Shown: positions 1,043 to 46,975 of the stretch, piece after piece | Numbering within the stretch: the first letter of the stretch is position 1 | Layout: every line of letters starts with the position of its first letter | From: an uncultured Gammaproteobacteria bacterium | GTDB taxonomy: Bacteria; Patescibacteriota; Microgenomatia; CAZETR01; Amesbacteraceae | Assembly: GCA_964356705.1 (NCBI GenBank) | Contig: CAYHIN010000001.1 | Span: 3,066 to 67,065, forward strand | Direction: 5' to 3' | DNA: 64,000 nucleotides | Program-made: the position numbers and the translations under genes | The notes under the pieces: generated by a model | Told to the model about the DNA's origin: nothing | What the model saw: only the letters and a program-made list of their open reading frames with translations | Databases searched by the model: none

Positions 1043-1458
1043 TGATATTTGTGGAGATGGAGGGAATTGAACCCTCGTCTGATTAAGGATTGAGTTTCAG
1101 TTGTTACAAGCTTGTCTGGCTTTTAAGAAAGCTAGCAAAAATGATTGACTTCTCTTGATCTAACCGCGATCAATCAATCTTAGTTAGAAGCATCTCGATT
1201 GGTTGTCACTTCAAACTACAGTCGAGAAAATAGTTTGAAATGCCAGTTAAGCTGCGTACGCGTAAACGCGAGCGGAGCGAGGCTGGGAGCTGACGGCGGA
1301 AGCCATGTCAGATCCGATTACTCGGAACCTAGAGGCCACGACGTTAGCCGTGTTGACGAAAGCGTCGACACTTAACTTTTGAACCTGTTTTACGAGTGTT
1401 GTTCAAACTCGGCTTGCTGAAATTTCAAAGGGCTTAGTCATCGATGCCTAGCATCCCC
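1043..1458 (-). ncRNA. ssrA: tmRNA (ssrA)
   Basis: On the minus strand the 5' GGGGATG pairs with the 3' CATCTCC(A), which is preceded by a T-arm GAGGG-TTCAATT-CCCTC. An internal reading frame ends ...YAYAA-TAA. It lies immediately downstream of smpB on the same strand. Confidence 0.7.
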
Positions 1459-1504
1459 AACTAGCCTCAGATTATAGCAAAGACAAGCCACTTTTTCAAG
1501 TTTA

Positions 1505-1951
1505 TTACTTCATCTCCCTCTCCATATCCCGCTCCACATCAGCCTGCTTGATACTCTCTCTTTTTTCATACTTTTTCTTCCCTCGAGCCAATCCCAGCTC
1601 CAGCTTCACTTTCCCATCTTTTGTATACATAGCCGTAGGCACGAGGAGTAGCCTGGACTGTTTCATTTTTGAAGCCAGTTGCACTATCTCCTTTTGATGC
1701 AAAAGCAGCTTGCGTTCATGCCCCGGGTCATAATTGGTGTTATCCGCGTGTTTATAAGGATAGATGTGGATATTGATACTAAATACCTCCATCGCTCCAA
1801 ATTTGGATGTCCTGATCTTGGCATACGCATTTCCTAGATCCACTCCTCCCGCCTTGGCCGATTTCACCTCAGGTCCTGTCAGGACTATCCCTGCCTCAAC
1901 CCTCTCCGCGATGTCGTAGTTAAATCTAGCTTTTTGATTAATGACCCTCAC
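1505..1951 (-). CDS. smpB: SsrA-binding protein SmpB
   Basis: 148 aa. MRVINQKARFNYDI...GIVLTGPEVKS is a canonical SmpB N-terminus. Confidence 0.9.
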   Translation of the reverse strand: MRVINQKARFNYDIAERVEAGIVLTGPEVKSAKAGGVDLGNAYAKIRTSKFGAMEVFSINIHIYPYKHADNTNYDPGHERKLLLHQKEIVQLASKMKQSRLLLVPTAMYTKDGKVKLELGLARGKKKYEKRESIKQADVERDMEREMK

Positions 1952-4537: not shown

Positions 4538-6358
4538 TTACTTTTTTTCTATATTAAACAATCCACTCTTCACAGCCAGTGTCCCCGGCGCCCGCAAATT
4601 AAAGGCTTTCTTAAAGTTAACCCCCGATATCACCACTTCTCCTCTATTAGTCTGCAGTATCACCTGATCCGTATACCCGTTACTACTGTGTTTCACCGAC
4701 ACGCCCGAGACAGAAGTCACCCTTCCCCCATGTTTATCCGCCTCTTGTGCCATCCTGTCCTTAGACCACGGATTATCAGATCCTCCGTAGCAGGACCGCA
4801 CATCTTCCGGAAATACTCCGCTCATATCCCCGCCATTAGAAACCACAATCGCCGCATTTATCATGTCCGAAAATTCATCCATTTTGAGCCACGGATGAGA
4901 TCTCCCACACGTCTTTCCCGATCGGTCCTTGTACCAGCCTTTATAAAACCAGGGCGATCCTCCCACCTTTTCCCAAGCCCCCGATGCCCAGTTAGTCCAG
5001 TCAGAAGTGGTATCCCAAAACCCAGGTGTAGTATGTCCAATACTCGTGTAGCTGTCTTGATGTCCTCCCGAAGTCGATGCGTACCAAGTATTTACTATTT
5101 CTCCACTAGTCTTTGAGACCACGATCTCTCCTTCCGTTTGTGACACCGCGTCTCCCCATCTTCCCGGATTTCCAGATTTACTACTACTGTATACCTGGCA
5201 CGCCTCGGTCGTACATATCGATCCATTCGCGTTCTGATTACCTATTCTCCATCCTGTATAAGACAGCGCGTATGACCGGGCCGCAATCGCCTGGGCTTTC
5301 ATCGCCTCAAATCCCCCCTGATCCGCCCACGAGGTCGGCATCTCGGCAATCCCTCTCAGATATTTGCCTTCAAATGCCAGCGTCCCGGCACTAGTTTTGA
5401 TTACACCCGGCATACTCACTTTTCTGATTTCTACGTTTCCATAGTAGGCTTCCAATATTTGTTTGTAGTTTTGTCCCGACTTGGCCCGACCATATGCCCC
5501 GTATTGACTCATGCCTTTATAGTGCGGCGCCCCAAATGAAAACATCGCAAATGCCGGTGAGAATCCCGGATTATAGTCGGGTCTGGCAGCCGGATCATCA
5601 GCCAGTGGCACATCCCCTACCGACGTCGCATAAGTTCCAGTTTTAGAAGCCAGTAGTGACTGTTGCCTGGCGGTAAGTGACGCGATTTTTCCTCCTAGAT
5701 CCGACTGATATTTACTCGCTTTGTCCACTTCCACTTGCAAAAAAGCTGCTTGTTTATCCACTCTCGTCTTCAGCCCGTCCAGATTTGTTTTTTGAGTTTT
5801 GAGACTTGTGGCTTGGGCATTGAGATTTGTTATTTCTCCTCCCACCGACACGATCAGTTCCCGGTCTTGTCTAGCTAGTTTTTCTCGGTAAAACAGGTCC
5901 TTAAAAAATTCCGATGCACTCTTCGCCGAAAATAGCACCATCATCATCGACTGTTCCCTTCTTCTTATATAGTCTTGTTTTAGTTTAGCCGCCATCAGCT
6001 GCTCTTTTACTCCGACCTTCACTTCTCGCTCAAATATGTCTTTAGTCAGTTTATCTAGCCGTGTATCTAGTCCCGTTATTTGGGACTTGAGATTTGTGGT
6101 TTGGGATTTGAGCCCATTCAACTCTTTCACATTTGTTGAGTTGGCTTTGGATATCGCATCCAGTATTCCCGAGTATTTACTAATACACCCCGATATCACA
6201 CTAGAGTCCGACAGCTTGCTCGGATCATCGCACTCCTCCGCCCACACTCCTCCCACGCCCAGCATACAAAAGGCAAGGAAAAACAATACATAATACTTTA
6301 TACGTAATACGTGATACACAAGTCTCGGCATTGACTGTATTTTACATGTTAAACTCAA
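4538..6358 (-). CDS. SpoIID/LytB-domain protein with N-terminal coiled coil
   Basis: Signal/TM, long coiled coil, then the EAMKAQAIAARSYALSYTGW motif typical of SpoIID/LytB amidase enhancers. Contains family B and D repeat insertions. Confidence 0.6.
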   Translation of the reverse strand: MSLTCKIQSMPRLVYHVLRIKYYVLFFLAFCMLGVGGVWAEECDDPSKLSDSSVISGCISKYSGILDAISKANSTNVKELNGLKSQTTNLKSQITGLDTRLDKLTKDIFEREVKVGVKEQLMAAKLKQDYIRRREQSMMMVLFSAKSASEFFKDLFYREKLARQDRELIVSVGGEITNLNAQATSLKTQKTNLDGLKTRVDKQAAFLQVEVDKASKYQSDLGGKIASLTARQQSLLASKTGTYATSVGDVPLADDPAARPDYNPGFSPAFAMFSFGAPHYKGMSQYGAYGRAKSGQNYKQILEAYYGNVEIRKVSMPGVIKTSAGTLAFEGKYLRGIAEMPTSWADQGGFEAMKAQAIAARSYALSYTGWRIGNQNANGSICTTEACQVYSSSKSGNPGRWGDAVSQTEGEIVVSKTSGEIVNTWYASTSGGHQDSYTSIGHTTPGFWDTTSDWTNWASGAWEKVGGSPWFYKGWYKDRSGKTCGRSHPWLKMDEFSDMINAAIVVSNGGDMSGVFPEDVRSCYGGSDNPWSKDRMAQEADKHGGRVTSVSGVSVKHSSNGYTDQVILQTNRGEVVISGVNFKKAFNLRAPGTLAVKSGLFNIEKK

Positions 6359-7359
6359 ATCACATGCGCAGATTTTTTCTCCTTACGACTCTTTTTTTAT
6401 TTTTATCAGTCACCCAAACTCAAGCCCAACAGTTTAAATGCATAAAAACCCCAAATTGTGATCCGTGTACAAACTGGTCAACCGCAGCAAACTGTCTCAA
6501 CACTGCCACAAACACAAATCTTTGTAATACCGGGGTAAATCCTTGTACTGCTTTCTCAGCCAGCTGTCCAGACAACGGCTCCCAGCTGGATCAGTTCCAA
6601 GTCCAAACATGTTCCACTGTTCTTCCTGCTTGTTCTAGTCCAAACCTATGTCTCTCAGAAAGCGCCTGCTCAAATCCAGTCTCTGGATTTAGCTGCGGTG
6701 GAAATCTCATATGCTGTGCTCCACCAGGAGAGCCCACTTCTACTCCAGTTCCAACAACCGCTCCTACTGCTTGTGAGACATTTTCCGGACCGTACAACAA
6801 CCCCTTTGTCTGTATGTCTCCCGGCGGGGCAGTCTCGGGAAGTTACGATTGCAATCCAGGCGGATCATCTCCACTGTTTGACCCAACTGCTCCTCCAAAT
6901 AGTTATGACAATGCCTGCGGATGTGCCGCCGCTACAAAAAGTTCATGTTCTCTCATTTGTTGCCACAGTAACAGCACCGTCGGACCACCTGGCACTACGG
7001 GCGTCCCTCCATACCAACCCTCCTCATTATGCGTCCCTCCTAACGGATCTACTTATACAGGTGTAAAAACTCCCTTTGGCTGTCTTCCTTATACTGGAGC
7101 CGATGGTCCAGCAAAAACGACCGTGGTCGTCCTCTCAAACTGGGCCGTTGCCATTTCCTCCAGCATCGCCATCTTTATCATCCTCTTCGCAGCACTTCAG
7201 ATAGCCACAGGCAGTGGTGACCCCAAGCGCATCAAAGCCGGCCAAGAACTCCTTTTCTCCGGTCTCGCCGGCCTATTTTTGATAAGCCTGGCCATTGTTG
7301 TTCTCAACTTTTTGGGAGTAACCATCTTAGGTCTAGATCTTTTGGGCTTCTTCGTCTGA
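6331..7359 (+). CDS. T4SS pilin-like protein (VirB2/TrbC-type C-terminal domain) with N-terminal Cys-rich Pro/Thr-rich extracellular extension
   Basis: Signal peptide, then about 220 aa with more than 30 Cys. The C-terminal 110 aa are paralogous to the downstream pilin array (TM - SGDPKRIKAGQE - TM). Confidence 0.6.
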   Translation: MTVFYMLNSNHMRRFFLLTTLFLFLSVTQTQAQQFKCIKTPNCDPCTNWSTAANCLNTATNTNLCNTGVNPCTAFSASCPDNGSQLDQFQVQTCSTVLPACSSPNLCLSESACSNPVSGFSCGGNLICCAPPGEPTSTPVPTTAPTACETFSGPYNNPFVCMSPGGAVSGSYDCNPGGSSPLFDPTAPPNSYDNACGCAAATKSSCSLICCHSNSTVGPPGTTGVPPYQPSSLCVPPNGSTYTGVKTPFGCLPYTGADGPAKTTVVVLSNWAVAISSSIAIFIILFAALQIATGSGDPKRIKAGQELLFSGLAGLFLISLAIVVLNFLGVTILGLDLLGFFV

Positions 7360-7378: not shown

Positions 7379-7723
7379 ATGGCCAGTCCACTGTGTGTTC
7401 CATCAGGTGCAACCGGAAATCTAGGTGTCTCTACTCCTTTTGGCTGTCTACCCTTTGGTGGCAATGCAGGTCCTGCTACCCCGATGATCACTGTTTTAGT
7501 AAATTGGAGCGTGGGTCTAGCCGCAGGCGTAGCTCTCCTCACTCTTATTTATGCCTCTTTTCAGATCGTCACCGCCGCAGGTGACGCCAAGCGCGTCCAA
7601 GCCGGCCGCGAGTTAGTAACTGCCAGCATCGGCGGTCTGATCTTAGTCGTCATGGGTATAGTTATCCTTAATTTTTTAGGTGTCAGCGTCCTAGGATTGG
7701 ACGCTCTAGGCTTTAAGATATAA
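7379..7723 (+). CDS. VirB2/TrbC-like T4SS pilin paralog
   Basis: Two TM helices separated by the loop AAGDAKRVQAGRE. Near-duplicate of the C-terminus of the 6331 ORF. Confidence 0.6.
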   Translation: MASPLCVPSGATGNLGVSTPFGCLPFGGNAGPATPMITVLVNWSVGLAAGVALLTLIYASFQIVTAAGDAKRVQAGRELVTASIGGLILVVMGIVILNFLGVSVLGLDALGFKI

Positions 7724-7733
7724 TTGTAAGCAC

Positions 7734-8036
7734 ATGCGCACACTCGCCCAAATCAGCATTCCCCCTCCAACTGGTCTCAGATTTTCCAATTACAACGATC
7801 TTCCCGCCGATCTCTTTACCCGCATTTTATTATTCGCCATGGCAGCCAGTGGCCTTATATTTTTTGTTCAGCTCATCATGGCCGGTTTCAATCTCCTCAC
7901 TTCTTCCGGTGACCCAGCCAAGATCCAGTCAGCCACCAAAGCTCTCACCAATTCTCTCACCGGGCTTATCATTGTCATTAGTACTTATTTCATCGCCCAG
8001 ATTATCCAAGCCATTTTGGGCCTCCAGATAGTCTAG
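7734..8036 (+). CDS. VirB2/TrbC-like T4SS pilin paralog
   Basis: TM - SSGDPAKIQSATKALT - TM. Confidence 0.6.
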   Translation: MRTLAQISIPPPTGLRFSNYNDLPADLFTRILLFAMAASGLIFFVQLIMAGFNLLTSSGDPAKIQSATKALTNSLTGLIIVISTYFIAQIIQAILGLQIV

Positions 8037-8039
8037 CTT

Positions 8040-8363
8040 ATGGCCAGTACACCTATAAACAGTATTTTTACAAATCATCCCTCAGCAGGTATTGTGGCCG
8101 CCACTCCCGCCTCACTCATCTCATATCTACTCCCAAACATTATGGCCGCGGCTGGCATCATCTTCTTTCTCATGATTCTGGGCGGCGGCTTCATGATGGT
8201 CAAAAACGCCGGTGGCAGCCCAAGTGCCCAAGATACCGCAAAAGCCAGGTCAGCAATTACTATGGGCATCATTGGTTTCTTGCTTGTAGTATCCGCCTAC
8301 TTTATACTTCAGATAGTCCAAGCCCTAACCGGAGTCAACTTTATAATTACTCCCATTTTTTGA
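8040..8363 (+). CDS. VirB2/TrbC-like T4SS pilin paralog
   Basis: TM - AGGSPSAQDTAKARSAIT - TM. Confidence 0.6.
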   Translation: MASTPINSIFTNHPSAGIVAATPASLISYLLPNIMAAAGIIFFLMILGGGFMMVKNAGGSPSAQDTAKARSAITMGIIGFLLVVSAYFILQIVQALTGVNFIITPIF

Positions 8364-8366
8364 CAG

Positions 8367-8729
8367 ATGAAGCTACTCGCCCAACAATTCGGTACTGTTG
8401 AAAATCCCTTTCTACCCAAATATTACAATGTTCCCGGATATATAGGGTTTTCCCAGGGCCAAGGTCTTATCATTCTTCTCAATAATCTTGTCAAATTCAC
8501 CATCGTCCTTGCGGGCCTCTACACTTTTTGGAACATCATCGCCGCAGGCTTTATGTTCATGTCCGCGGGTGGCGAAGCAAAAAACATTACCAAAGCCTGG
8601 GACAAGATCTGGCAATCACTCATTGGTTTGTTATTAGTAGCCGCTTCCTTTATACTTGCGGCCGTATTCGGATATCTGATCTTTGGTGATACTAAAGCGT
8701 TATTACAACCTCGAATATTTACCCCATGA
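8367..8729 (+). CDS. VirB2/TrbC-like T4SS pilin paralog
   Basis: TM - SAGGEAKNITKAWDKI - TM. Confidence 0.55.
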   Translation: MKLLAQQFGTVENPFLPKYYNVPGYIGFSQGQGLIILLNNLVKFTIVLAGLYTFWNIIAAGFMFMSAGGEAKNITKAWDKIWQSLIGLLLVAASFILAAVFGYLIFGDTKALLQPRIFTP

Positions 8730-9100
8730 AAAACTTACTCGCCCAAGGTACTCCTATTGGCAATTTCGATGGCCTAGGACCTCTGGGAAACACCAGAAAT
8801 CTATATCTGGGTGGGGCAAATACAGGCGGTGCATTTGAAAAAGTCATCTCTTTGGTAATCGGTGTTCTTACTGTCTCTGCAGGGCTTTGGTTTCTTTTCC
8901 AAATCTTCACAGGAGCTATCTCCTGGATATCCAGTGGTGGGGACAAACAAGCCGTCCAAAACGCTCAAAAAAGAATGTCTCACGCCATAATTGGCTTGTT
9001 CGTCTTGGTCGCAGCTTACGGACTCATAGCTACGGTCGAGCTTGTCTTTGGACTTCAGATATTAGATTTTCAAGGTCAGTTTTTAAATCTTCGCCCATAG
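8726..9100 (+). CDS. VirB2/TrbC-like T4SS pilin paralog
   Basis: TM - SSGGDKQAVQNAQKRMSHAIIGL - TM. Confidence 0.6.
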   Translation: MKNLLAQGTPIGNFDGLGPLGNTRNLYLGGANTGGAFEKVISLVIGVLTVSAGLWFLFQIFTGAISWISSGGDKQAVQNAQKRMSHAIIGLFVLVAAYGLIATVELVFGLQILDFQGQFLNLRP

Positions 9101-9102
9101 AT

Positions 9103-9438
9103 ATGTTGCTTGCCAGAATCATCAACCCCGCTCTAAACAGTAAAGTCGGCAACACTACGATCCAGGGAGATGGTCCTGGTATTTTGCAGCTGTTTTTAAG
9201 AAACTTTATCGATATTGCCCTCGGCACCGCCGGCGTCATCTTTTTCTTCATGTTATTACGTGGAGGTTACGAATATCTCACCGCCGGCGGAGACAAAGAG
9301 GCCGTCCAAAAGGCAACGAAGAGACTCACCACTTCGTTCATTGGTATTGCAATCATCTTCTCTCTTTTTGCCCTCGTCTTTATTGTTGAGGCATTATTTG
9401 GCATCTCGCTGTTGCAGATAAACATTCCCACTATATGA
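9103..9438 (+). CDS. VirB2/TrbC-like T4SS pilin paralog
   Basis: Start taken at the internal ATG (MLLARIIN), because the upstream part of the 8887 ORF overlaps the previous gene. TM - AGGDKEAVQKATKRLT - TM. Confidence 0.55.
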   Translation: MLLARIINPALNSKVGNTTIQGDGPGILQLFLRNFIDIALGTAGVIFFFMLLRGGYEYLTAGGDKEAVQKATKRLTTSFIGIAIIFSLFALVFIVEALFGISLLQINIPTI

Positions 9439-9764
9439 ACCTTCTTGCCCAAGCCACCATCAATCTCACAAACCCCTTATCACCTTATAGAAACCTCTTC
9501 TCTCTTCGTCCCTCTAGTTTAGTTTCAGCCGCTATCAGTCTCCTCCTTGGGGCAGCAGGTGTCACGGCCTTCATTTATCTTCTCGTGGGCGGTATCCAGT
9601 GGATTACTAGCAGTGGCGACAAAGAAGGACTGGACAAAGCCAAGAAAAAAATTACCCACGCTCTCATCGGTTTGGCGATCGTCTTCTCAGCTTACGCTTT
9701 GATCTTCATCATCCAAGCATTGTTCAACATTAGTGTCATCGGTGTCAATATTTCTCCTATTTAA
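9435..9764 (+). CDS. VirB2/TrbC-like T4SS pilin paralog
   Basis: TM - SSGDKEGLDKAKKKITHALIGL - TM. The 3' 80 nt are nearly identical to the next paralog. Confidence 0.6.
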   Translation: MNLLAQATINLTNPLSPYRNLFSLRPSSLVSAAISLLLGAAGVTAFIYLLVGGIQWITSSGDKEGLDKAKKKITHALIGLAIVFSAYALIFIIQALFNISVIGVNISPI

Positions 9765-9821
9765 TTCCTTAGTACTTTGCACTTAGCTCTTAGCACTATA
9801 TAATAAACTTAATGAAGGGAG

Positions 9822-10256
9822 GTGAATAATCAAGTGAGCAAAATACAAAAAATAATTCAGTTTGGGACCGCTTTGGGTACAGTATTGGCAGTCAACCCTG
9901 CTTCCGTTCTGGCCCAAGGAGCTTTTGATCCCACAGACAATGTAAATATCGCTCCCGAAGCAGGCGTTTTCAGCAAACTACCTGGTCTTCGTCCGTCCGC
10001 TTTCATTAGTGGAGCCATCAGTTTCCTGCTCGGAGTAGCAGGTGTAGTCGCCTTTATCTTCCTACTTTGGGGAGGCCTACAGTGGATCCTCGCCGGTGGC
10101 GACAAAGAAGGTACCGAAAAGGCTCGCAAGAAGATCACCTCCGCTCTCATCGGTTTGGCGATCGTCTTCTCAGCTTACGCTTTGATCTTCATCATCCAAG
10201 CGTTGTTCAACATCAGTGTCCTTGAAGTGTCTCTGAAACCACTAGGTAATCTCTAA
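9822..10256 (+). CDS. VirB2/TrbC-like T4SS pilin paralog with clear signal peptide
   Basis: Signal ALGTVLAVNPASVLAQG, then TM - AGGDKEGTEKARKKITSALIGL - TM. Confidence 0.65.
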   Translation: MNNQVSKIQKIIQFGTALGTVLAVNPASVLAQGAFDPTDNVNIAPEAGVFSKLPGLRPSAFISGAISFLLGVAGVVAFIFLLWGGLQWILAGGDKEGTEKARKKITSALIGLAIVFSAYALIFIIQALFNISVLEVSLKPLGNL

Positions 10257-10335
10257 ATTACCTTATGGTAGATGAATCAATTCCGTCATTCCGGACGAAA
10301 GTCTAGTTAGACTTCCGGAATGACGGCACATATCT

Positions 10336-10626
10336 ATGCCAGCCAAACTTAGCAATTTACAAGATGTATTTTCCAACGTCTTGGTTTCTGTTCTCTCGCT
10401 CATAGGTCTTGTGACTTTTGGCATGCTTTTGTGGGGCGGAGTCCAATATCTTACGGCGGGCTCCGATAAGGAGGCCGCAGGCAGGGCCAGAAACACGATT
10501 ACCTACGCTCTCATTGGTCTCATCCTCGCCATTTCCTCCGTCATGATCATCAATCTTTTGGGCACCTTCTTAGGTCTGGATTTCAGCACGTTCAACATTT
10601 GTCTCCCCGGGACCACTTCCTGCTAA
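10336..10626 (+). CDS. VirB2/TrbC-like T4SS pilin paralog
   Basis: TM - AGSDKEAAGRARNTITYALIGL - TM. Preceded by a strong stem-loop. Confidence 0.6.
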   Translation: MPAKLSNLQDVFSNVLVSVLSLIGLVTFGMLLWGGVQYLTAGSDKEAAGRARNTITYALIGLILAISSVMIINLLGTFLGLDFSTFNICLPGTTSC

Positions 10627-10640
10627 TATATAATAGTTCC

Positions 10641-13600
10641 ATGCTCCGTAAATTTTTCTTTTTCCTCATCGTATTTCTTCTCACGATCCATATTTTCCAT
10701 CCCCCAAGCACCCAAGCAGATTACCCAAACGACTGTGCTCTCGATTATCCCATTTGTCACACCAGTATTCCTCCAGGGACACCCGTAGGCACTTGTCTCA
10801 ACCACAGTGTCATAGGCTGCAACACCTCTTCCGGAGTACCGGGAGTTTGGTGCTGCCCCTCCTCATTTATTTTCCCTTCACTCACACCGACCCCCCCATC
10901 TGTCCCCACTTGCATCGCCAATGGCAATTATTGCGTAGCCACAAATGTCGCTTGTGATCCCGGCCACACCAGAGGTCAAGGTGGCAATTGTGAAACTGGA
11001 AAAATCTGCTGTGCCATCACCCTTCCTACTGTGCCTCCTCCCGGCGGCCCTCCGGGTCCCATTCCCCTACCCACCTATCCGACAAATTTTAGCCCCCTAG
11101 AATATCCCTGCAACACGACCACCGACGAAGAGTTTCATCCCCTACGTCCCTATCCGGCTTCTCCCTGCGACCCCCTCATTCCCAAAAAACAGGAGCCCGA
11201 TTTTCTTTCCTTCGCCTGCGGCAAGAGCCTAAATACTCTGGGAGAGTATCCCGTCAGCCGCAGTTTTACCCAAGCTCAGTTAGACGCCATGTCCCCCATT
11301 TTTCAAAACTACGGCGAGCCTTACCGTTGCGGCGCCCAGGTCTGTATCCGCAAACGCTCCGTTTTTGATATTGCCCTCGATTTATCGAGTGCCAAGTTGC
11401 CAATTATCGGCAACACCCAAGATCCCCTCGACGACGCCACCAAAGTCAACAATTATCTATCTTGGTATCTGGCCGGCACCAATCCCACCTGGCTCGAGGA
11501 CCTAAATTTGGCCACCCCAGCCCAAAACGTCAACTCCCAGTGTATCGGCACCTCACTGGCCACCTTCATGAACACCGTTGTATCTGGGACCACAAATTTA
11601 CGCAACATCCGCCTCACTTCTCCAGCCTTCAATCTTACCAATCCCGCCGAGCAGGATATTTTTATCGCCATGAGCCAGGCCGGAGCCAACTTTGCAGATA
11701 TCGACGCATTTGCCGGCAACACCTACACTCTAAATGGCGTAGCCGCCTACGATTGGGTCATCAGTCCCTCATTTCGCGGAGCCGACGGCAAAACCTGGAA
11801 AGAAAAATTCACAAGTTTCAACAAAGGCATTATCTTTACCGAATTCGGGGATTTTGCCACTTTTGACAACCCTCCCGGATCTCCAAATCGCGCCTCGGTC
11901 ATAAGCGCCATGCGCCAAGAATTCACCAATACCGCAGGCGATGGTGTCGTCAAATCCATCAACTATTTCAACGCTTTTGGTGGCAATCCCCAATTTATAG
12001 GCCACCAATTGTCAATCTCAGAGCTCCAGGTTATTACCAGCTCAAATTATTCAAAAAGCGGGGTCAATTCCGCCCAGGGAGTCAATCGCGATTTTCCCCC
12101 CAGAGTGGGCAGTGCCGGTCTCAAGTGGAGCGTGGAGATCATCACCTCGCCCGGTGATGAGACAGGTGCTATCGAATCCATCAACGCCGCCCATCGCGCA
12201 GGTGTCATCCCCATTATTCGCCCTTGTTACGGCAATTCCTGTGGTTTTGCCGATCCAGTTGTATATGTAGATTTCATCAGTCGGGTATCCCAGCGTGTGA
12301 CCGATCAGTCCCGCGAGATTTGGTTCATAGCCGGCCCAAACGAGCCCGCCGGTGAGCATTGGGCCGCCCCTCTTTGTGGCACTGCCGGCCAGCCCGTAGC
12401 CAGTATCGATTCTTTCTTGACTTACGCCGGTCCTATTCGTAAGCTCCTACCCCAGTATTCTCTGGATACCATCCGCTACGTTCTGGCTACCAATCAAGGG
12501 CGCAATGTCCACAATTATTTACTCGATACTCAAGGCCGCCGTATTTCCCAAGTTCCATCCTTCATTCGTCTCTATTCTCCCACCGATATCTGGACCAAGC
12601 TCTTCCAAAGAGTTCCCCTCGCCACTATGGAAGACGTCGTGGGCGAGGTCACCGTGGGCCTCATTACCTCTCCTAGATCCGACGGCTCATCTCCCCAACC
12701 ACCCGACGTTTATGTTGTAGACCCCAGCCACCCCGATGCCATGCGCCTTACCATCAAAGACGGATCGGACTCCCGCCTCTATTTCCCTCATCTCAAGACC
12801 GTAAGTTCCTTAGTCGAAGTCCTAAATGCTATCTCGAGACCCAAGCTCTCCCAAAACTATCGCCCCGATGAGCGAAACGTCACCCAGTATATCAACGAAC
12901 ACCAAGGTATCGATGACTCCACTCCTATCCAAAGAAAATCCAACGAAGGCAATTACACCGGACTCACTCGCAACACCGAAATTAGAGAAGGCGAGCCCGC
13001 CCCTACAGCTCTCTTTGGCCAAAATGATCATTTTGAGTTTGACCAGCGCTGCGAGCTCACGACCACCCAGGACGCCGTAGGTGACAATCTTTTTGGCCAG
13101 ACTATCAATGGTCGCCTCGCCTATACACATGATCTAAAGTTTGACCCCGTCGTCCAACCCAATGCTTGTCTTCCAGATTTTGCCGTCTGTACACCTGGCG
13201 TCGACGTTTGTTGTGACAATGCCGTATGCAGCAACGTCACTCTTGGTGGTATTGATTACGGCGACCGTTGTCACGGCGGCAATCCCAATTCCAGTTCCAT
13301 TCCCACTGAAGCTCGTGTCGCAGTCTTTACCAAGACTCCTCTCATCGATCGCTTTTATGGCGATCTTATTTCCAACTCCAACTCTTTCTTTAGACGTTTC
13401 GTCAATTGGTACGACCGGTCCACCGGCGGCCCAGATACAACGATTAGGTCAGGTTCTCTTACTTTTCCCGCCAAGACCCAAGTCGGTTATACTGCTACAG
13501 CCCCCATTCCTCCACCCGTAAGCCCCGAGACAGCCCCAGGCAATCCCAAAGCCGGAGCCGGCAACAATACCGGCGGCGCCGAGATTTATTTCCCCAGGCT

Positions 13601-15128
13601 CGGAAGTCTGGCCGATTATTTCCTAGGTGGTCCCACCAACGAGAGATTAAATCTCCAAAAGATGTTCCGTCCCAAAAACTTTGGTAGTCTTATCGGCCCG
13701 GGTGGTGCCGGCATTTTGGCCGCCTGCCAGCCGTATCTCTCCAATTTCCCCGGATCCATTACCGTAAACATCCAAAATCCCAAAAACGTCTTCTCCAAAG
13801 TCGGCGACAGTATTACCGTTTCGCCTAATTTCCTAGATGCCTTTGCCGGAGCATACAACCTCGGTAGTCATACCGGCCTTCAATCGGTAATCAATTTCTT
13901 CACTCCCTTATCTTTCACGGAAAATACCCTTGCCGCAGGCATCGGGTGGAACACCCAGGACCTTATAAATAATAATTTTTCCGCTCTAGAGTCTGAATAC
14001 ACCCGTACCAAGCCTGCCGTGGCCATTATCATGATCGGCACCAACGATTCCGGTGGCTCCAACCAAGTTGTGGTCCCAGTCTACACCGATCGTTTAGAAC
14101 GCATCGTAAATTACACTGTTAGCAAGGGTATAATTCCCATCCTCAGTACTCTCCCCCATCTCACCAACGCCAATCCCCAGCACAATACCAATACCGAATT
14201 GCTAACCGGAGCCATCAAAGACGTTTCGACCAGACTGGGTGTTCCCCTCATGGACTACCGCCTCGCCACCGAGCAAATAAATACTGCTGCACGCAACTGG
14301 GGCATTAGTACTGACAACATCCATCCTTCCGTCGGCGGTGGCAATGCCGGCGATCTTTCCGATTTACCCATGAGTGAAGGCGGCTACAATGTCCGAAACT
14401 TCGTCTCCCTTTGCGCCCTAGATGCAGTTTGGAAGACCAGACTGGGAGGAGATAGCTCTAGTAGTGGAGACTGCTTCACGGCAGCCCAACCCGTTACCGC
14501 TTCCTGCTCGGCGCCCGGATCCACTCCCCTAAACTATGCTTGTCACACCAATCTTGAGCTCAAATCCATAATCCAAGAGTCAGCAAATAAGTTCGGGGTA
14601 AATCCCAGCGTCCTCTTAGGTATTCTTAGTGTCGAAACCAGGAATGGTATTTTTGGAATTACTTCAGGTGAAGTGAGACGCCACTCCACTTCCACCTCAC
14701 AAACCGGCTTTACTCCATATATTTGTCAACCAAATTCTTGTGGCGCCATGGGAGCCATGCAGCTTTTGACTGGCATTGGCGTCCAGCCCAGTTGTTCTCA
14801 AGCCTACGGTATCAACAATTGGGCTCTATATGGTTCGGCCGTCGTAGAAGCTTGCAAAGCCCCCTCTGGTTACGGACCAAATCCCGGTAATATCCGAGAC
14901 TCAATATACGCCGGAGCAAAAATGATCGGCAGCTTCGGCCAGAACTCAAATTCCGAAGCCGGAGTCAAAGAAATCGGTCGCAGATATTTTGGCAACGACA
15001 CTTCCCGTTTTGATCTCTTTGTAAACTTGGATTACATAAACGACTGTGTCCCAGGCTACACCACACCTTCCTCAGCTCGCAGCATGACCTATGGTGAATA
15101 TCTTTGGGAAGTAGCCCGAGTTAGATAA
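10641..15128 (+). CDS. giant secreted cell-wall hydrolase: Cys-rich N-domain, SGNH/GDSL esterase domain and C-terminal SLT/lysozyme-like domain
   Basis: Start taken at MLRKFFFF (signal peptide). GDSL blocks are VGDSIT, MIGTNDSGG and DNIHPS. SLT-like motifs are QESANKFGV...LSVET...AMGAMQLL. The ORF track starts at 10599, overlapping the previous gene. Confidence 0.65.
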   Translation: MLRKFFFFLIVFLLTIHIFHPPSTQADYPNDCALDYPICHTSIPPGTPVGTCLNHSVIGCNTSSGVPGVWCCPSSFIFPSLTPTPPSVPTCIANGNYCVATNVACDPGHTRGQGGNCETGKICCAITLPTVPPPGGPPGPIPLPTYPTNFSPLEYPCNTTTDEEFHPLRPYPASPCDPLIPKKQEPDFLSFACGKSLNTLGEYPVSRSFTQAQLDAMSPIFQNYGEPYRCGAQVCIRKRSVFDIALDLSSAKLPIIGNTQDPLDDATKVNNYLSWYLAGTNPTWLEDLNLATPAQNVNSQCIGTSLATFMNTVVSGTTNLRNIRLTSPAFNLTNPAEQDIFIAMSQAGANFADIDAFAGNTYTLNGVAAYDWVISPSFRGADGKTWKEKFTSFNKGIIFTEFGDFATFDNPPGSPNRASVISAMRQEFTNTAGDGVVKSINYFNAFGGNPQFIGHQLSISELQVITSSNYSKSGVNSAQGVNRDFPPRVGSAGLKWSVEIITSPGDETGAIESINAAHRAGVIPIIRPCYGNSCGFADPVVYVDFISRVSQRVTDQSREIWFIAGPNEPAGEHWAAPLCGTAGQPVASIDSFLTYAGPIRKLLPQYSLDTIRYVLATNQGRNVHNYLLDTQGRRISQVPSFIRLYSPTDIWTKLFQRVPLATMEDVVGEVTVGLITSPRSDGSSPQPPDVYVVDPSHPDAMRLTIKDGSDSRLYFPHLKTVSSLVEVLNAISRPKLSQNYRPDERNVTQYINEHQGIDDSTPIQRKSNEGNYTGLTRNTEIREGEPAPTALFGQNDHFEFDQRCELTTTQDAVGDNLFGQTINGRLAYTHDLKFDPVVQPNACLPDFAVCTPGVDVCCDNAVCSNVTLGGIDYGDRCHGGNPNSSSIPTEARVAVFTKTPLIDRFYGDLISNSNSFFRRFVNWYDRSTGGPDTTIRSGSLTFPAKTQVGYTATAPIPPPVSPETAPGNPKAGAGNNTGGAEIYFPRLGSLADYFLGGPTNERLNLQKMFRPKNFGSLIGPGGAGILAACQPYLSNFPGSITVNIQNPKNVFSKVGDSITVSPNFLDAFAGAYNLGSHTGLQSVINFFTPLSFTENTLAAGIGWNTQDLINNNFSALESEYTRTKPAVAIIMIGTNDSGGSNQVVVPVYTDRLERIVNYTVSKGIIPILSTLPHLTNANPQHNTNTELLTGAIKDVSTRLGVPLMDYRLATEQINTAARNWGISTDNIHPSVGGGNAGDLSDLPMSEGGYNVRNFVSLCALDAVWKTRLGGDSSSSGDCFTAAQPVTASCSAPGSTPLNYACHTNLELKSIIQESANKFGVNPSVLLGILSVETRNGIFGITSGEVRRHSTSTSQTGFTPYICQPNSCGAMGAMQLLTGIGVQPSCSQAYGINNWALYGSAVVEACKAPSGYGPNPGNIRDSIYAGAKMIGSFGQNSNSEAGVKEIGRRYFGNDTSRFDLFVNLDYINDCVPGYTTPSSARSMTYGEYLWEVARVR

Positions 15129-15302: not shown

Positions 15303-16847
15303 ATGCCCAAAATAAAGAATTTCCTATCTTCTCTCCTTCTCTGTCTTACGCTCTCCTCCTTCTTTCCCTACTTTGCATTAGCCGTGGATGGTCCTTGGTA
15401 TAACCAAAATCCCCAACAATTCGGCCAAAAAGTCTTTGGGGGCGATCAAAACGAAATCTTTGGCGAACGCTATACCTTTGCCCAAGTTAACTGGATAATA
15501 AACAGTTTAAATTTGATATTAAATCCAACCAACGGCCAAACCCCGGACGCCATAAAAGGTATCGTTTGTGCCATCATCCCTCTTATCTCTCCAGGCTCTC
15601 CCTGCCCCATTGCCTCTACGCCTGAAAATAAGTGGATTGCTTACTCACAACTAGGTATAAATGGGCTTCTTGTTGGGGGCATCACCGAAATTACCGCTTC
15701 CCCACCAGCATCCGGAATTTTAGAAATAGGCGAGACTCTTGCAAAATTTGACCCTGCAACTCCCGTCCAGGCCCAAGGAGGTTATGGATTTGAAAGCTTA
15801 AACGGACTCAGAGTCATTTGGGGCGCTTCGCGCAACATGGCTTATCTCATTATGGTGATTTTGCTTATCGCCACCGGCTTTATGATCATGTTTCGAGTCA
15901 AGATCAATCCCCAAACCGCAGTCTCACTTCAAATCATGATTCCAAAAGTTATTTTCACTCTACTCCTAGTTACCTTTTCCTATGCAATAGCTGGGCTCGT
16001 AATCGATCTTGTTTATGTTGTCCTCGCCTTCGTAATCTCTGGACTCACGCTGTCCCAAGCAATTACCCCTCTCAGTCTTCCTGGTTCAGTGGGCTGGTTC
16101 TTTACCCCAGACTTTGGCAAGATATTCGGCTACTATCTTTTGTCGTGGCTCGTACAGATAGCAATCGGCGGAATTGCCGGTCTAATTGGAGTGGGCCTTG
16201 CTACACTGATGCCACCCTTAGCTCCATTTGTTGGATTACTAGGAACAATCTTTGCTCTTATTGAAATTATTTTTGCATTTGTACTTCTCTGGCTTCTATT
16301 TAAAGTTTGGTGGATGATGGTCAAAACCTATTTAACACTCATGTTTTTGATAGTTATTGGTCCTTGGCAAATTATGTTGGGCTTACTTCCCGGACAACAA
16401 GGTTTTGGAGGGTGGTTCAGAAATATTATAGCCAATGCCTCCGTATTTCTAACTGTTCCTATTATGTTTTTACTCAACATGTTCTTCTGGCCGATGAGTC
16501 CTTTCAGTCCGTTAGGTCAAGTAAATGGTGGAGCATCAGATTTACCCAGTTTTCCTCTCTTCGCTACAAAAGGCGGAATTTTTGGATTCGCAGTAGGCTT
16601 TGCCATATTATCGATGATCCCCAAAATTGCTGATATTATTAGAGACGCTCTCAAGATCCCACCATTCAAATATGGCTCAGCTCTAGGCGAGGCTCTAAGT
16701 CCACTTAAGATGGTAACCTCTCCTGCGGGTGGAGCAATCTCAGCAGGTGGTAGCAACGAACTAAAGGGTGCTACCACTGGATTACAATATGCCTCTGGCG
16801 GCATACGTCAGGCTGCTGGAGACTGGTTGAAAGGATCTATCAGGTAA
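15303..16847 (+). CDS. VirB6/TrbL-like polytopic T4SS membrane protein
   Basis: Signal peptide, about 180-aa extracellular domain, then at least 6 TM helices. Position between the hydrolase and VirB4 matches ConG/VirB6 in Gram-positive T4SS. Confidence 0.5.
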   Translation: MPKIKNFLSSLLLCLTLSSFFPYFALAVDGPWYNQNPQQFGQKVFGGDQNEIFGERYTFAQVNWIINSLNLILNPTNGQTPDAIKGIVCAIIPLISPGSPCPIASTPENKWIAYSQLGINGLLVGGITEITASPPASGILEIGETLAKFDPATPVQAQGGYGFESLNGLRVIWGASRNMAYLIMVILLIATGFMIMFRVKINPQTAVSLQIMIPKVIFTLLLVTFSYAIAGLVIDLVYVVLAFVISGLTLSQAITPLSLPGSVGWFFTPDFGKIFGYYLLSWLVQIAIGGIAGLIGVGLATLMPPLAPFVGLLGTIFALIEIIFAFVLLWLLFKVWWMMVKTYLTLMFLIVIGPWQIMLGLLPGQQGFGGWFRNIIANASVFLTVPIMFLLNMFFWPMSPFSPLGQVNGGASDLPSFPLFATKGGIFGFAVGFAILSMIPKIADIIRDALKIPPFKYGSALGEALSPLKMVTSPAGGAISAGGSNELKGATTGLQYASGGIRQAAGDWLKGSIR

Positions 16848-16851
16848 AACT

Positions 16852-19629
16852 CTATCTTCTTTTTCCTCTCATCCATGCAAACATTCTCCCCAGACCTGTG
16901 TCGTTCCATGAGTCTTCAGACATGTCCCAAAACTCTCTTTGTCCTGTGCGTGTATTTCTTCCAGCCCCTAACCATACAGGCAAACCAAGCACTGCAGCCT
17001 TTGTGGATAGAGTAATTTTAGGAAGTGTACCACTTCTCAACGCCTTCAATAGCTCATCAATCCCTCCTTTTCCCGACTTTCTATTCATTTCATCAGCAGC
17101 ATCATCGTTACCATCACGCAAATTACCTATGTCATCCATCGTATCGTCAATTTTTGCATAACCAGCATAAACACCTTGTAATGGTTTCGCATTCACTATT
17201 GTCGCCTCGTCTGCTGTCGGGTCATAATCTTCTGCTTCCTCCAAAGTCGCAACTACTCCAAATAAATCCTCTACTCCCCGCTCAGATACAACCCTAGCCA
17301 AATACCCCACTCCGCCAACATCTCCATTCTTATCGCCATGTTTCATCTTTTCCAATGGAGACTTGCACGCTCCTTCCTTTGAAAATGGTATCCATTTATT
17401 CGGATCATATTTACCTAAAATTTCCGATTGTGCATTTTTGATAACATCTCTTGTCTTTTTTTCAGCCTCAATTTCCCGATTCAGTTTTTCCCTTTTTGCA
17501 GCACTCAAATCTTTATCTTCCAACTGTCGCTCGATCTTAAATATTTTTACTTCTTGAAGCAGCCTCTCTGTTTCCGATCTTCTCCAAATATCGGAGTCCT
17601 TCCTTACTTCTACTAAATCAGTAGGTAAACCTGACACTCCCTCATATACTCCTGGATTAATCACTGGGTTCCACAACGCCTGATGTGTGTTGATCATTTT
17701 TCTATATTCCACCATTTCCGGCCCAAGCGCCAAGAGCTTAGCAAGTTCTCTCATTGATCCCACTCTTACTTCATCCATACCATCAAATCTGGCCATCATA
17801 TCCTTCCCAATCTGGTTCATTCTTGCTTTAACGGCTGTATGCAGTAGCTTATTGTGACCCTTCCTCATCATATCCTGAAGTTCACCCTGATACTCAGCCA
17901 CAAAGCTTGCCTGTTCTGCCGACAAATCTCCAACCTCTTGGCCACACAGTGCCAACCACATTCTAAGAGAATCTTTAGCGATTTCATCATTTGAATAAGC
18001 CCTGAAAGTTTCTTTCAAATTAAACGATGTCTGATTCAACGCACCCTCCTGCACATCTCTATCTAGAGCCTTAGATCCACCACCCAAACTATTCCAAGTT
18101 CCTTGATCTTTTGCCCTTATCGTCATCAGCTTAAACACCCCACCAGTCAACAATTCATAAGCATTCATCGCTCTCTCAGTCACTCCTACTCGATCGACGC
18201 TTCTTCCCTCAGCTCCAGCCAAAGCTTTTTCTTCTTCCACTAGACCTCTTGTTATAGCTTCCAATCGAATCCCTGGCGCTTCTCCAATCTTAAAAGCTGT
18301 AGCAATTACTACTCTTGTGCTCTTCATGACCAACTCCATCCCCTCTGCACCAGTCTCTGTCACGAATAAAAACTTAGGTAATCCATGTGCCACCAAAAAT
18401 TCATCATTCACCAACTCTTGACTCACATCTGTTTCATCCTCTTTTGGACCATACCTACTAAAGGACTCTTGTCCTACACTACTTCTTGCTTGAGACCGAC
18501 CATTTAATATTCCATTTTGGGGTTTTATTGCTTTTCTTATAGTAACCCCAGGATCAACTGATTCGTCAGTCATACTCACCAACAAATTAGCTGTCGTCAG
18601 TTTTAAGTCACCAAGGTTGAGGTATTTTTGCCTATCTTTTTGCTGTTCAAGCTCTCTTGCATCATATGGCCTTTTGGCGCGCTTTAACGCCTCAAGCTGG
18701 GCCACCACCAGATTTGTCTGCACCCCTTCAAGCCATAAATCAACTACTGATTCATATTTGCCATCTTTCCACCCATTGACCTTTCTATATTCAGCCAATT
18801 CTCTACAATAGGCCGCTGCTTGTTCAACGGGAGGATCGCTACTCACTATCCCCAAGGCCATATCCCGATTCCATTCACGCATAATTTCAGTAAATCTTTG
18901 GCCAACGAGGGAGTTTATTTTCGCAAAGGCGTTATCAGCTTCAGCGGCAGCCACCAATTCCTTTCTCCTCCTAATAAGACCGTTATCACGTAAGATATTA
19001 GGGTCTTTTGAAAAATCGCTTCTCAGCTCGTCACTCAACGCATCCCATTCATAATAGGTTTTGATATCACTTTCATAAATGCTTTTATCCATTTTTGCGT
19101 CAAAATCTCTTAATATTGTTCCGCCTTTTCCAGCCCCCATTGCCACTTCCATCCGCCTCAGTTGATATTCTACCCACTCCAGATATACATCTTTATTTGC
19201 AATATGCTTCTCGTCCAGCTTTTTCTCACAAGCTTCCAATACTGACTTTATAATTTTCACCAGATCTTTAGCACCAAAACCCTTCACTTTTCCACTCTCA
19301 TTTACCCGTATCGCCTCTATCCAAGTTTTTCGAACTTTACTTTCAACAATCTCTCCCAACCCTTCTACTTGGGCTTCTTCACCCACCTGCATTAACCACT
19401 CAGTTGCTTTTGCACTCTCAGGTCCACCTTTTCGAGCCGTATCTCTTACTTGTTCGTACGAAGGAGAAGGTGCAGATTCTTTCACACCGGCGATTCCTCT
19501 ATATTCGGGAGCATGTATTCTTGTCACTTCTTCAGCAGTGGAAGGAGCCCGCTTTCGCGAACCTCCCAATCCCTCAATATCTGGCGCACTTAATCTTTCA
19601 GGTATCATAAATTCTCCAAAATCAGGCAT
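16852..19629 (-). CDS. large acidic hypothetical protein (925 aa), no TM, no recognizable motifs
   Basis: Single long ORF on the opposite strand, embedded within the T4SS-like cluster. Confidence 0.6.
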   Translation of the reverse strand: MPDFGEFMIPERLSAPDIEGLGGSRKRAPSTAEEVTRIHAPEYRGIAGVKESAPSPSYEQVRDTARKGGPESAKATEWLMQVGEEAQVEGLGEIVESKVRKTWIEAIRVNESGKVKGFGAKDLVKIIKSVLEACEKKLDEKHIANKDVYLEWVEYQLRRMEVAMGAGKGGTILRDFDAKMDKSIYESDIKTYYEWDALSDELRSDFSKDPNILRDNGLIRRRKELVAAAEADNAFAKINSLVGQRFTEIMREWNRDMALGIVSSDPPVEQAAAYCRELAEYRKVNGWKDGKYESVVDLWLEGVQTNLVVAQLEALKRAKRPYDARELEQQKDRQKYLNLGDLKLTTANLLVSMTDESVDPGVTIRKAIKPQNGILNGRSQARSSVGQESFSRYGPKEDETDVSQELVNDEFLVAHGLPKFLFVTETGAEGMELVMKSTRVVIATAFKIGEAPGIRLEAITRGLVEEEKALAGAEGRSVDRVGVTERAMNAYELLTGGVFKLMTIRAKDQGTWNSLGGGSKALDRDVQEGALNQTSFNLKETFRAYSNDEIAKDSLRMWLALCGQEVGDLSAEQASFVAEYQGELQDMMRKGHNKLLHTAVKARMNQIGKDMMARFDGMDEVRVGSMRELAKLLALGPEMVEYRKMINTHQALWNPVINPGVYEGVSGLPTDLVEVRKDSDIWRRSETERLLQEVKIFKIERQLEDKDLSAAKREKLNREIEAEKKTRDVIKNAQSEILGKYDPNKWIPFSKEGACKSPLEKMKHGDKNGDVGGVGYLARVVSERGVEDLFGVVATLEEAEDYDPTADEATIVNAKPLQGVYAGYAKIDDTMDDIGNLRDGNDDAADEMNRKSGKGGIDELLKALRSGTLPKITLSTKAAVLGLPVWLGAGRNTRTGQREFWDMSEDSWNDTGLGRMFAWMRGKRR

Positions 19630-19705
19630 TGTCCAATTATACCGTACCCAGGCTAATTTGGCCGCCGGCCATAAAACAACAAGCCGTGCCCCAAAACATC
19701 AGTTT

Positions 19706-19927
19706 CTAATTGCTTATAAGTCTTCCATCTTCAAACCAGCTTGCTTCAAAATACTCCTTAAAGTGTTCTTCTTCAGGTCTTTGTTGTGCATTGGCACAGT
19801 AGTCCTCAAATTTCTCGCTGCATGAAACATGCTGTACATGACTACCTATCTGTCGTTTTTTCACAAAACCAGCTCTTTTCAGAATTTTTAACATCTCTTT
19901 CGGTTTCATCGAGGGCAGATTTCCCAT
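19706..19927 (-). CDS. HicA-like mRNA interferase toxin (divergent C-terminus)
   Basis: KPKEMLKILKRAGFVKKRQIGSHVQH matches the HicA/YcfA N-terminal motif. Confidence 0.45.
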   Translation of the reverse strand: MGNLPSMKPKEMLKILKRAGFVKKRQIGSHVQHVSCSEKFEDYCANAQQRPEEEHFKEYFEASWFEDGRLISN

Positions 19928-20196: not shown

Positions 20197-20279
20197 ATCA
20201 TCATTTTAACATTTTAATACAATTAGATTAATCCCAATCAAAAAACAATAGTTAACATTTCGGATATAATCAAATCAAT

Positions 20280-46396: not shown

Positions 46397-46975
46397 GTGA
46401 AGACCACTATTCCCACCTCCTGGGCTCTCTACGTCATCTTCATTGCGTCATTTATTGTCTTCATCCTTCCGTCTCCAAGCGAGTTCTTTGCTTCAAAAAA
46501 AGTCACAAATTATTCAGGGGAGTGTGAAGCCTGCTCTTCCCATCCGTTGTCAGCTTCTGAAAAAAAAGTGGTCTGCGCCCCAGGATTAGAATGTAGCAAT
46601 AAAGCTATAACCGGTGGGGCCACGGGCACTTTATGTGTCCAGCCGGGTGAGAGTATCGATTATTGTCTAGTCGTTGACGAGCCTCCCACTCCCAAGGGCT
46701 GTCACTATCTCCAGATCCAATGCATCACCGCTCCCTGCGATCCAGTCCTAGTTTGTCCATCATCTGAACCCCAAAAATGTCAGCCCGTTGTAAATCCCTG
46801 CAGTCCTCACAGTTGTGATTACGACCCGGCGAAGTGTGAGGAGTCTTATACCTGCCCCGATTCCGAATGGGTGGACTGCATGCCAGGTCCTAGCACACCC
46901 AAGCTTCGTTGCCAAAAAGATTATTTAGACTGGATGCGCGACAATTGTCCCAATTTCCAAGGCGCAGCCTATTAG
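46397..46975 (+). CDS. secreted Cys-rich hypothetical protein
   Basis: Hydrophobic N-terminus and about 24 Cys in 190 aa. Confidence 0.4.
   Translation: MKTTIPTSWALYVIFIASFIVFILPSPSEFFASKKVTNYSGECEACSSHPLSASEKKVVCAPGLECSNKAITGGATGTLCVQPGESIDYCLVVDEPPTPKGCHYLQIQCITAPCDPVLVCPSSEPQKCQPVVNPCSPHSCDYDPAKCEESYTCPDSEWVDCMPGPSTPKLRCQKDYLDWMRDNCPNFQGAAY

Follow-up and report, generated by a model that had tools for sequence, protein, structure and literature searches.

A Cysteine-Rich Head on the First Pilin of a Patescibacteria Type IV Secretion Array, a Candidate Host-Contact Module

The first gene of a tandem pilin array on the Amesbacteraceae contig CAYHIN010000001.1, within a stretch of 64,000 nucleotides that is referred to here as the window, encodes a protein in which a long cysteine-rich region precedes a pilin domain. 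This gene is called gene A and its product P0001. Analysis of the gene, its neighbours and its relatives favours a reading of the gene A product as a modular, VirB2-like pilin in a Patescibacteria type IV secretion system (T4SS), which would display a host-binding head that sets specificity; we assign this a probability of roughly 0.55. An earlier note on the same DNA had proposed a candidate adhesin or minor pilin, and this is the best-supported reading by inference from three observations: the head is a hypervariable cassette, variation occurs only at the first array position, and a relative carries a VWA domain. Whereas the array and the pilin family are already known, a VirB2-like pilin with a grafted ectodomain was not described in the literature searched.

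Gene A and its product

Gene A lies in a single open reading frame (ORF) without interruption on the forward strand (6331 to 7359). The longest ORF begins with TTG at 6331, and the public NCBI/ENA protein at this locus, annotated as 'hypothetical protein, Patescibacteria group bacterium', begins with ATG at 6364. The latter is the likely start. Read from there, the sequence opens with a classic Sec-type N-terminus, MRRFFLLTTLFLFLSVTQTQA followed by QQ, and AlphaFold2 (AF2) modelled a helix over residues 2-18 of P0001, within the predicted signal peptide. That extension and pilin form one genuine gene, as the earlier note had assumed, was confirmed by the absence of any stop in frame and by a syntenic genome and the majority of the top 150 homologues, which have the same architecture. 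The possibility that assembly or annotation had artificially joined two genes is negligible and is refuted by several lines of evidence: the frame holds no stop or frameshift, a second record holds the identical protein, an independent metagenome contig holds an identical fragment (1.4 kb), and over 100 homologues as well as another genome show this architecture. Beyond this fragment, a metagenome scan returned one 50% relative. The ORF list, Pfam and hidden Markov model (HMM) matches further agree that gene A is the first gene of the array.

P0001 contains 24 cysteines, fewer than the more than 30 claimed previously for the extension, and every one lies ahead of the hydrophobic helices. The 198-aa mature ectodomain holds 22 of them, corresponding to 11.1% Cys compared with 0.65% in 24 other window genes (binomial P ~2e-20), so that the enrichment is real and far beyond chance. 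The cysteines are grouped as eight (aa 24-89), six (aa 90-118), eight (aa 137-200) and two (C223 and C240, just before the hydrophobic helices); the first three groups are called modules A1a, A1b and A2. Homologue searches with A1a gave no relatives. A1b was the sole part of the ectodomain modelled with confidence (predicted local distance difference test, pLDDT, 75-81 alone; 77.5 and three beta strands with a module alignment), and structure searches with this model returned no matches. The Pro/Thr-rich linkers reported earlier are present as two Pro/Thr/Ser linkers, APPGEPTSTPVPTTAPTA and HSNSTVGPPGTTGVPPYQPSS. With a net charge of -6 the ectodomain is anionic, and for this reason its reading as an antimicrobial defensin-like peptide was rejected.

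The C-terminal 110 aa of gene A matched Pfam PF18895 (T4SS_pilin; E 2.6e-4, 21.4 bits, with the curated cut-off at 26.6 bits), which is its only pilin-family Pfam match. All 25 aligned members of the subfamily match PF18895 at E<=0.01 (best E 8.9e-11), and the relative P0019 clears the cut-off with 39.5 bits. AF2 predicted a helical hairpin (residues 250-283 and 287-317, pLDDT 68-83) flanking the charged loop GSGDPKRIKAGQE. The 'bona fide pilin domain' of the earlier note was therefore correct with respect to a pilin at the C-terminus, but its kind is VirB2/TrbC-like T4SS and not type IV pilus. Identity as a type IV pilus pilin was rejected given the lack of a class III signal peptide, the Sec-type N-terminus and the C-terminal position of the hydrophobic hairpin. 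Gene A departs from its class in size, as the mature product has ~310 aa compared with ~70-130 aa for the usual T4SS pilin. NCBIfam gave no match for gene A, and a word-indexed protein search with its pilin domain alone gave no matches either.

A variable head at the first array position

Among 5.8 billion proteins only one close homologue of gene A was found. This protein, P0002 (316 aa), has the same layout and is encoded in the comparison locus L001, which has the same gene order as the window: a divergent SpoIID gene, the headed pilin, a short paralogue, the array, a giant hydrolase and a VirB6-like gene. The pilin domains of both proteins are 76% identical and the SpoIID neighbour products 89%, yet no alignment was obtained between the ectodomains. 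On the DNA level, window and L001 are 80% identical up to nt 6381, nothing aligns between 6382 and 7134, and identity is 70% from 7135 on. As the ectodomain is unalignable between conserved flanks, it represents a hypervariable cassette. Within the 64-kb window, 6364-7135 is not duplicated, even in part, and no reverse transcriptase was found among the ORFs scanned, a scan that was not exhaustive. Given the lack of a template repeat in the window, a target of a diversity-generating retroelement was rejected.

An exhaustive HMMER search with the full gene A protein gave 2535 matches, the best 150 of which were used for size and Cys counts. Apart from gene A and P0002, the matches mostly cover the pilin domain, and several reach into the N-terminal region of the query (P0035, P0133, P0097). 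Within the best 150 homologues, 117 have a length of 160 aa or more and 36 of 250 aa or more, and the pilin domain is preceded by at least six cysteines in 108 and by at least ten in 57. The number of cysteines is even in 111 of the 116 members with at least six in the mature part (P ~4e-27), which suggests that the heads are extracellular domains with all cysteines in disulfides.

Scanning one genome per species yielded 58 loci, and those with an informative label are nearly all from Microgenomates (Amesbacteria, Woesebacteria, Beckwithbacteria). Array statistics were taken from those 45 loci that have three or more pilin genes. The head subfamily takes the first array position(s) in 44 of these. 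SpoIID usually comes first, followed by the head pilin, some seven other pilins and the VirB6-like gene, which occupies its conserved position after the array in 37/45 loci; a giant GDSL-type hydrolase, recognisable in 15/45 loci, may precede the VirB6-like gene. Head and pilin are joined at a conserved junction, C-x(8-12)-G-[IV]-x-T-x-x-G-C, which is near-universal in the sequences inspected and was located in 63 of 66 head-pilin genes. The extension before the T-x-x-G-C part ranges from 10 to 338 aa with a median of 99 aa (upper estimates, as ORFs in the comparison loci were started at the first start codon), the remaining array members have ~90-170 aa, and such variation is confined to the position-1 pilin. 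In L038 (9002-10282) a head-subfamily pilin begins with a VWA domain (Pfam E 1.8e-18) that includes the metal-site motif DGSGS. Between this domain and the pilin hairpin lie first a long Pro/Ser/Thr linker and then a small Cys knot. The head of P0060 gave a weak Ig-like match. Two or three long Cys-rich head pilins with differing module sets were also observed in tandem before the array (L004, 6363-10300; L046, 8119-10291), and the tandem head pilins of an Amesbacteria metagenome-assembled genome have 208, 320 and 313 aa. This suggests several alternative heads per cell.

No conservation of the ectodomain was detectable even between orthologues, and the length of the extension is highly variable down to its absence in many lineages. 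This would also fit a passive, protease-resistant spacer or shield that has no specific ligand and drifts freely in sequence. However, the even Cys parity is kept and discrete modules recur across species, which argues for selection for folded domains, and bona fide binding domains stand at the head position in some lineages; a spacer is therefore considered quite improbable. The conserved junction, just ahead of which the short forms begin, could instead mark the site where a pro-domain is cut off, releasing a secreted disulfide-rich factor (a toxin, inhibitor or signal) and leaving an ordinary small pilin. Pilins of the VirB2/TrbC family are processed from longer precursors, and modules related to those of the heads resemble defensin or toxin scaffolds (see below). 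The ectodomain of gene A, however, is anionic and not cationic, its Pro/Thr linkers suggest a tethered domain, the VWA and Ig-like grafts in relatives indicate tethered adhesion modules and not freed peptides, and no protease gene was recognised adjoining the array. We regard such a release as improbable.

Export, display and host contact

In the favoured reading, a Sec signal peptide would export the N-terminal region of the gene A product. A long N-terminal domain needs Sec export, which fits the observation that gene A and the array member pil9 carry a full signal peptide and the short-tailed array pilins none. Several of these short pilins (starts at 7734, 8367, 8726 and 9435) open with M-x-LLAQ, also in L001, and the signal peptides end in VLAQ (pil9) and TQAQ (gene A). 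Motifs of this type were found in 37 of 313 non-head pilins versus 2 of 1178 control ORFs and may correspond to a short leader or a processing site that leaves an N-terminal Gln.

The two C-terminal helices of the gene A product would then enter the membrane as a hairpin whose Lys/Arg-rich loop lies in the cytoplasm and whose termini both lie outside, as is the case for VirB2/TraA-type pilins, and the 24 cysteines would pair into 12 disulfides outside the cell. From the membrane the T4SS would extract the gene A pilin and build it into a pilus of shorter paralogues with the N-terminus outward. In solved conjugative pili the termini reportedly face the filament exterior, so that an N-terminal graft would be displayed. 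The gene A product would be located at the pilus tip or sparsely along the shaft, which is the more plausible position because a head of ~20 kDa on every subunit is unlikely to pack. Finally, the head would bind a surface structure of a bacterial host and set host specificity. This step is suggested by the limitation of hypervariability to the head, the strict retention of folded disulfide modules, the VWA domain in a relative and the lack of VirB5- or PrgB-type adhesins in these systems (PMC12102498). Pilin arrays are essential in S. epibionticum, and a PrgB-like adhesin was not found in Patescibacteria (PMC12102498, PMC12857230, PMC10633639). For the Patescibacteria T4SS and its array, requirement for epibiotic growth was reported in the one species tested, their function was called 'completely unknown' and no adhesin was found (PMC11665869, PMC12102498).

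Since a helical filament would hardly accommodate so bulky a head, the gene A product could instead be a surface protein anchored in the membrane, or a primer of assembly. The hairpin would then serve as anchor or first basal subunit, and the Cys-rich domain would remain at the cell surface, where contact with, for example, the wall or S-layer of the cell itself might keep the apparatus in place or guide it. The first gene position suits a priming role, the headless short paralogue next door (pil2, 48% identical to the pilin domain of gene A) could be the polymerising form, and secreted enzymes carry wall- or polysaccharide-binding modules in the same arrangement of Cys module and Pro/Thr linker, which the adjacent hydrolase also uses. 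A binder of the own envelope should be conserved among close relatives, yet the ectodomain is the least conserved segment of the locus, and many genomes have the long form only and no short paralogue. An anchor or primer thus appears possible, though unlikely.

Several observations weigh against a host-binding pilus subunit. Gene A alone remains below the curated cut-off of PF18895 (21.4 versus 26.6 bits), and no solved pilin matched it by sequence or fold: PDB sequence searches with gene A and with the pilin-domain profile gave no meaningful match, and Foldseek with the full-length model returned generic membrane hairpins only, e.g. HtrII, at E>1. A recognisable binding domain is absent from the gene A ectodomain, for which AF2 confidence was mostly low. 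About one third of the head pilins are almost without extension, so that the head is dispensable in many lineages, and the gene for the VWA-bearing pilin of L038 is an orphan that does not adjoin an array. Polymerisation of Patescibacteria T4SS pilins is a proposal so far: reviews call a pilus a possibility, and even for cultivated Saccharibacteria it is only proposed. The hypervariability could also result from relaxed constraint instead of selection for host specificity.

Related modules, the surrounding locus and known systems

The earlier note had further seen similar Cys-rich N-terminal modules in a giant hydrolase of the window and in the product of 46397-46975 (here protein C), and had suggested a shared disulfide-rich fold. 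These two are indeed the sole other real window genes with Cys-dense stretches, but the similarity is no better than that of shuffles. Cys-rich regions of gene A (A), the hydrolase (B) and protein C (C) were subjected to local alignment (Smith-Waterman) and compared with 500 composition-preserving shuffles. Observed scores were 65 for A-B (shuffles 60 ± 10; 156/500 at least as high), 51 for A-C (46 ± 8; 130/500) and 39 for B-C (40 ± 8; 268/500). As these scores lie inside the shuffle distributions, homology of the gene A ectodomain with the hydrolase or protein C was rejected. Composition-corrected BLAST among the same regions gave a best E of 0.39; an E of 2.4e-4 obtained without this correction had taken in the signal peptide and the Pro/Thr linkers and was gone under composition-based statistics. 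The conserved module of protein C is moreover C-terminal: its homologues P0152 and P0153 share only the Cys module YTCPDSEWVDCMPGP...NC..F.GAA, on unrelated N-termini. No family is known for this module, and protein C did not fit the module profile described below (hhalign probability 0.3%). At the sequence level, a fold common to all three proteins was thus unsupported in the pairwise shuffles, in the HMM comparison with Cys-fixed shuffles and in hhalign. What gene A and the hydrolase do have in common is a design, in which a signal peptide, small Cys modules with a terminal CC, a Pro/Thr linker and a functional domain follow one another.

The idea of a shared module held in a weaker, family-level form for one hydrolase module, and not for A1b or protein C. 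A six-Cys module, C-x6-C-x6-C-x~11-C-x5-CC, often with GG-x-C, recurs in the heads of other species, and a module profile was built from nine such modules of other species' head pilins, none of them from the window. When the hydrolase module B2 was compared with this profile, its score was reached by only 1 of 300 Cys-fixed shuffles (isolated-module E 6e-5; hhalign probability 68%, E 4.6e-5). B2 is by its profile fit a member of a six-Cys family that is likewise found on other species' head pilins. A1b, in contrast, showed no similarity to the profile beyond Cys spacing (8.8 bits, below the shuffle mean; 230/300 Cys-fixed shuffles at least as high; hhalign probability 0.1%).

Against PDB sequences the module profile matched crotamine (E 6.5e-6), bovine beta-defensin 12 (BNBD-12; E 0.047), avian beta-defensin 11 (E 0.047) and tick carboxypeptidase inhibitor (E 0.95). 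Each of these proteins has the beta-defensin fold, and the sole other match, a phosphatase, was weak and spurious. The beta-defensin fold consists of a three-stranded antiparallel sheet with disulfides C1-C5, C2-C4 and C3-C6, and the Cys framework of beta-defensin-like (trans-defensin) proteins is C-x(4-8)-C-x(3-6)-C-x(8-13)-C-x(4-7)-CC. Both A1b (C-x5-C-x5-C-x8-C-x5-CC) and B2 (C-x6-C-x6-C-x11-C-x5-CC) follow this framework, and three strands were predicted for A1b. B2 may represent a beta-defensin-like fold in a bacterium. Judged by profile, this lead covers the window hydrolase and head pilins of other species, and A1b stands outside it. Whereas beta-defensins are free cationic peptides, the modules described here are anionic or neutral and tethered. 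The layout of gene A and the hydrolase also resembles that of fungal CBM1-type Cys-rich carbohydrate-binding modules, which are Pro/Thr-linked to secreted enzymes; neither of the two had a Pfam match to a carbohydrate-binding module. In L001 the VirB6-like protein (18714-20546) has an extra N-terminal six-Cys module with a Pro/Thr linker that is absent from the window copy (15303-16847), and one array pilin (12315-12737) has a Cys/Pro-rich C-terminal tail. Several extracellular components of the T4SS thus seem to acquire and lose Cys-rich add-ons, which do not form one detectable family.

A broader proposal can be put forward tentatively and is rather doubtful as a whole. Position-1 pilins would be exchangeable host-recognition heads, in which a different disulfide-rich, Ig-like or VWA graft on one VirB2-like stem sets the attachment or feeding partner of each lineage, and the recurrent graft, also present on the T4SS-linked giant hydrolase, would be the first bacterial beta-defensin-type (trans-defensin) fold. 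The trans-defensin fold is listed for animals only (PMC11561630).

By its gene content the locus is a Patescibacteria T4SS with a VirB2-like pilin array (Table 1). The array comprises ten genes headed by gene A, in an ultrasmall Patescibacteria genome, with nine paralogues in tandem at 7379-10626; pil9 also touches TrbC (PF04956). Two array pilins (7379-7723 and 9822-10256) had weak NCBIfam matches (E 6e-5 and 3e-4, under cut-off) to Mbov_0395, a pilin-like conjugal transfer protein of Mycoplasma integrative and conjugative elements, which hints that pilin-like proteins occur in other monoderm conjugation systems too. The polytopic membrane protein encoded after the array is probably VirB6-like, considering its topology and position. 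Just past the T4SS cluster lie dnaN and dnaA (28209-30914), as reported for some Patescibacteria. GC skew is strongly negative over the whole 64 kb (-0.07 to -0.42 in 2-kb windows) and does not change sign at dnaA, irrespective of gene orientation. A tmRNA gene adjoins SmpB, and a LAGLIDADG-domain ORF lies directly beside a tRNA gene (window 1049-1951 and 60470-61329).

Table 1. Position of gene A, its parts and other features in the window.
Feature	Position	Strand	Basis
Gene A, modular head pilin precursor, 331 aa (P0001)	6364..7359	+	ORF list; identical NCBI/ENA protein beginning MRRFF; kept in syntenic L001
Predicted Sec-type signal peptide MRRFFLLTTLFLFLSVTQTQA, cleavage likely before QQ	6364..6426	+	Sequence reading: RR n-region, hydrophobic core, TQA
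Cys module A1a, aa 24-89, 8 Cys (C26, 32, 35, 44, 54, 61, 68, 83)	6433..6630	+	Cys positions; low AF2 confidence
Cys module A1b, aa 90-118, six Cys, C-x5-C-x5-C-x8-C-x5-CC	6631..6717	+	Cys positions, AF2
Pro/Thr linker 1, APPGEPTSTPVPTTAPTA	6718..6771	+	Sequence
Cys module A2, aa 137-200, 8 Cys, CC at end	6772..6963	+	Cys positions; low AF2 confidence
Pro/Thr/Ser/Gly linker 2, HSNSTVGPPGTTGVPPYQPSS	6964..7026	+	Sequence
VirB2/TrbC-like T4SS pilin domain, aa 222-331: Cys loop C223-C240 (GVKTPFGC junction), helix 1, charged loop GSGDPKRIKAGQE, helix 2	7027..7356	+	Pfam PF18895, AF2
pil2, short head-subfamily paralogue, 114 aa, without extension or signal peptide	7379..7723	+	133.9 bits against subfamily HMM; kept in L001
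pil3-pil10, eight more T4SS_pilin paralogues	7734..10626	+	Pfam PF18895, HMM matches
Giant secreted hydrolase, 1495 aa, GDSL domain	10641..15128	+	Pfam GDSL
Hydrolase module B1, six Cys, then Pro/Thr linker	10734-10856	+	Cys spacing
Hydrolase module B2, CIANGNYCVATNVACDPGHTRGQGGNCETGKICC, six Cys, then Pro/Thr linker	10911-11012	+	Cys spacing; module-profile fit
Polytopic membrane protein	15303..16847	+	No Pfam match; conserved position after array
PrgI/VirB3-like	20280-21338	+	Pfam PrgI
ORF without assigned family	21335-22003	+	ORF between PrgI and VirB4 genes
VirB4-type ATPase	22000-23880	+	Pfam TraG P-loop, AAA_10
Protein C, membrane-anchored or secreted, 18 Cys	46397..46975	+	No Pfam match; unrelated to gene A modules

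Known Patescibacteria T4SS pilin arrays (PF18895; Quinonero-Coronel et al. 2025, PMC12102498; Wang et al. 2023, PMC10633639) are alike in the pilin family, in the tandem array of 2-11 divergent paralogues, in the position of the cluster near dnaA and in being common in Microgenomatia. This literature describes small pilins, whereas a long, Cys-rich and hypervariable position-1 ectodomain as in gene A was not mentioned in the papers searched, and a literature search on Patescibacteria Cys-rich pilins found no paper. The closest functional analogue of gene A is the modular type IV pilin PilB of Streptococcus sanguinis. In PilB (VWA) and PilC (lectin) an adhesive module is likewise grafted on a pilin for filament display (PMC8179133, PMC9934059), and a VWA domain also occurs in the L038 relative. 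These proteins, however, belong to the unrelated type IV pili and have a C-terminal module and a class III signal peptide, in contrast to the N-terminal module, Sec-type signal peptide and helical-hairpin T4SS pilin of gene A. VirB5/TraC of Gram-negative T4SS is comparable as a proposed minor, tip-located adhesive pilus component (PMC12857230), but VirB5 is a separate soluble protein and gene A a pilin fusion, and no sequence relationship was detected.

Taken together, a variable folded ectodomain on the first array gene in dozens of Microgenomates provides a concrete candidate for host contact. The head could be expressed, structurally solved and used as bait for the hosts of uncultivated lineages. 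If the beta-defensin-like modules were confirmed structurally, this would bear on the origin of the fold, and if the proposed role of gene A is true, the modular-pilin principle would extend from type IV pili to T4SS pilins.

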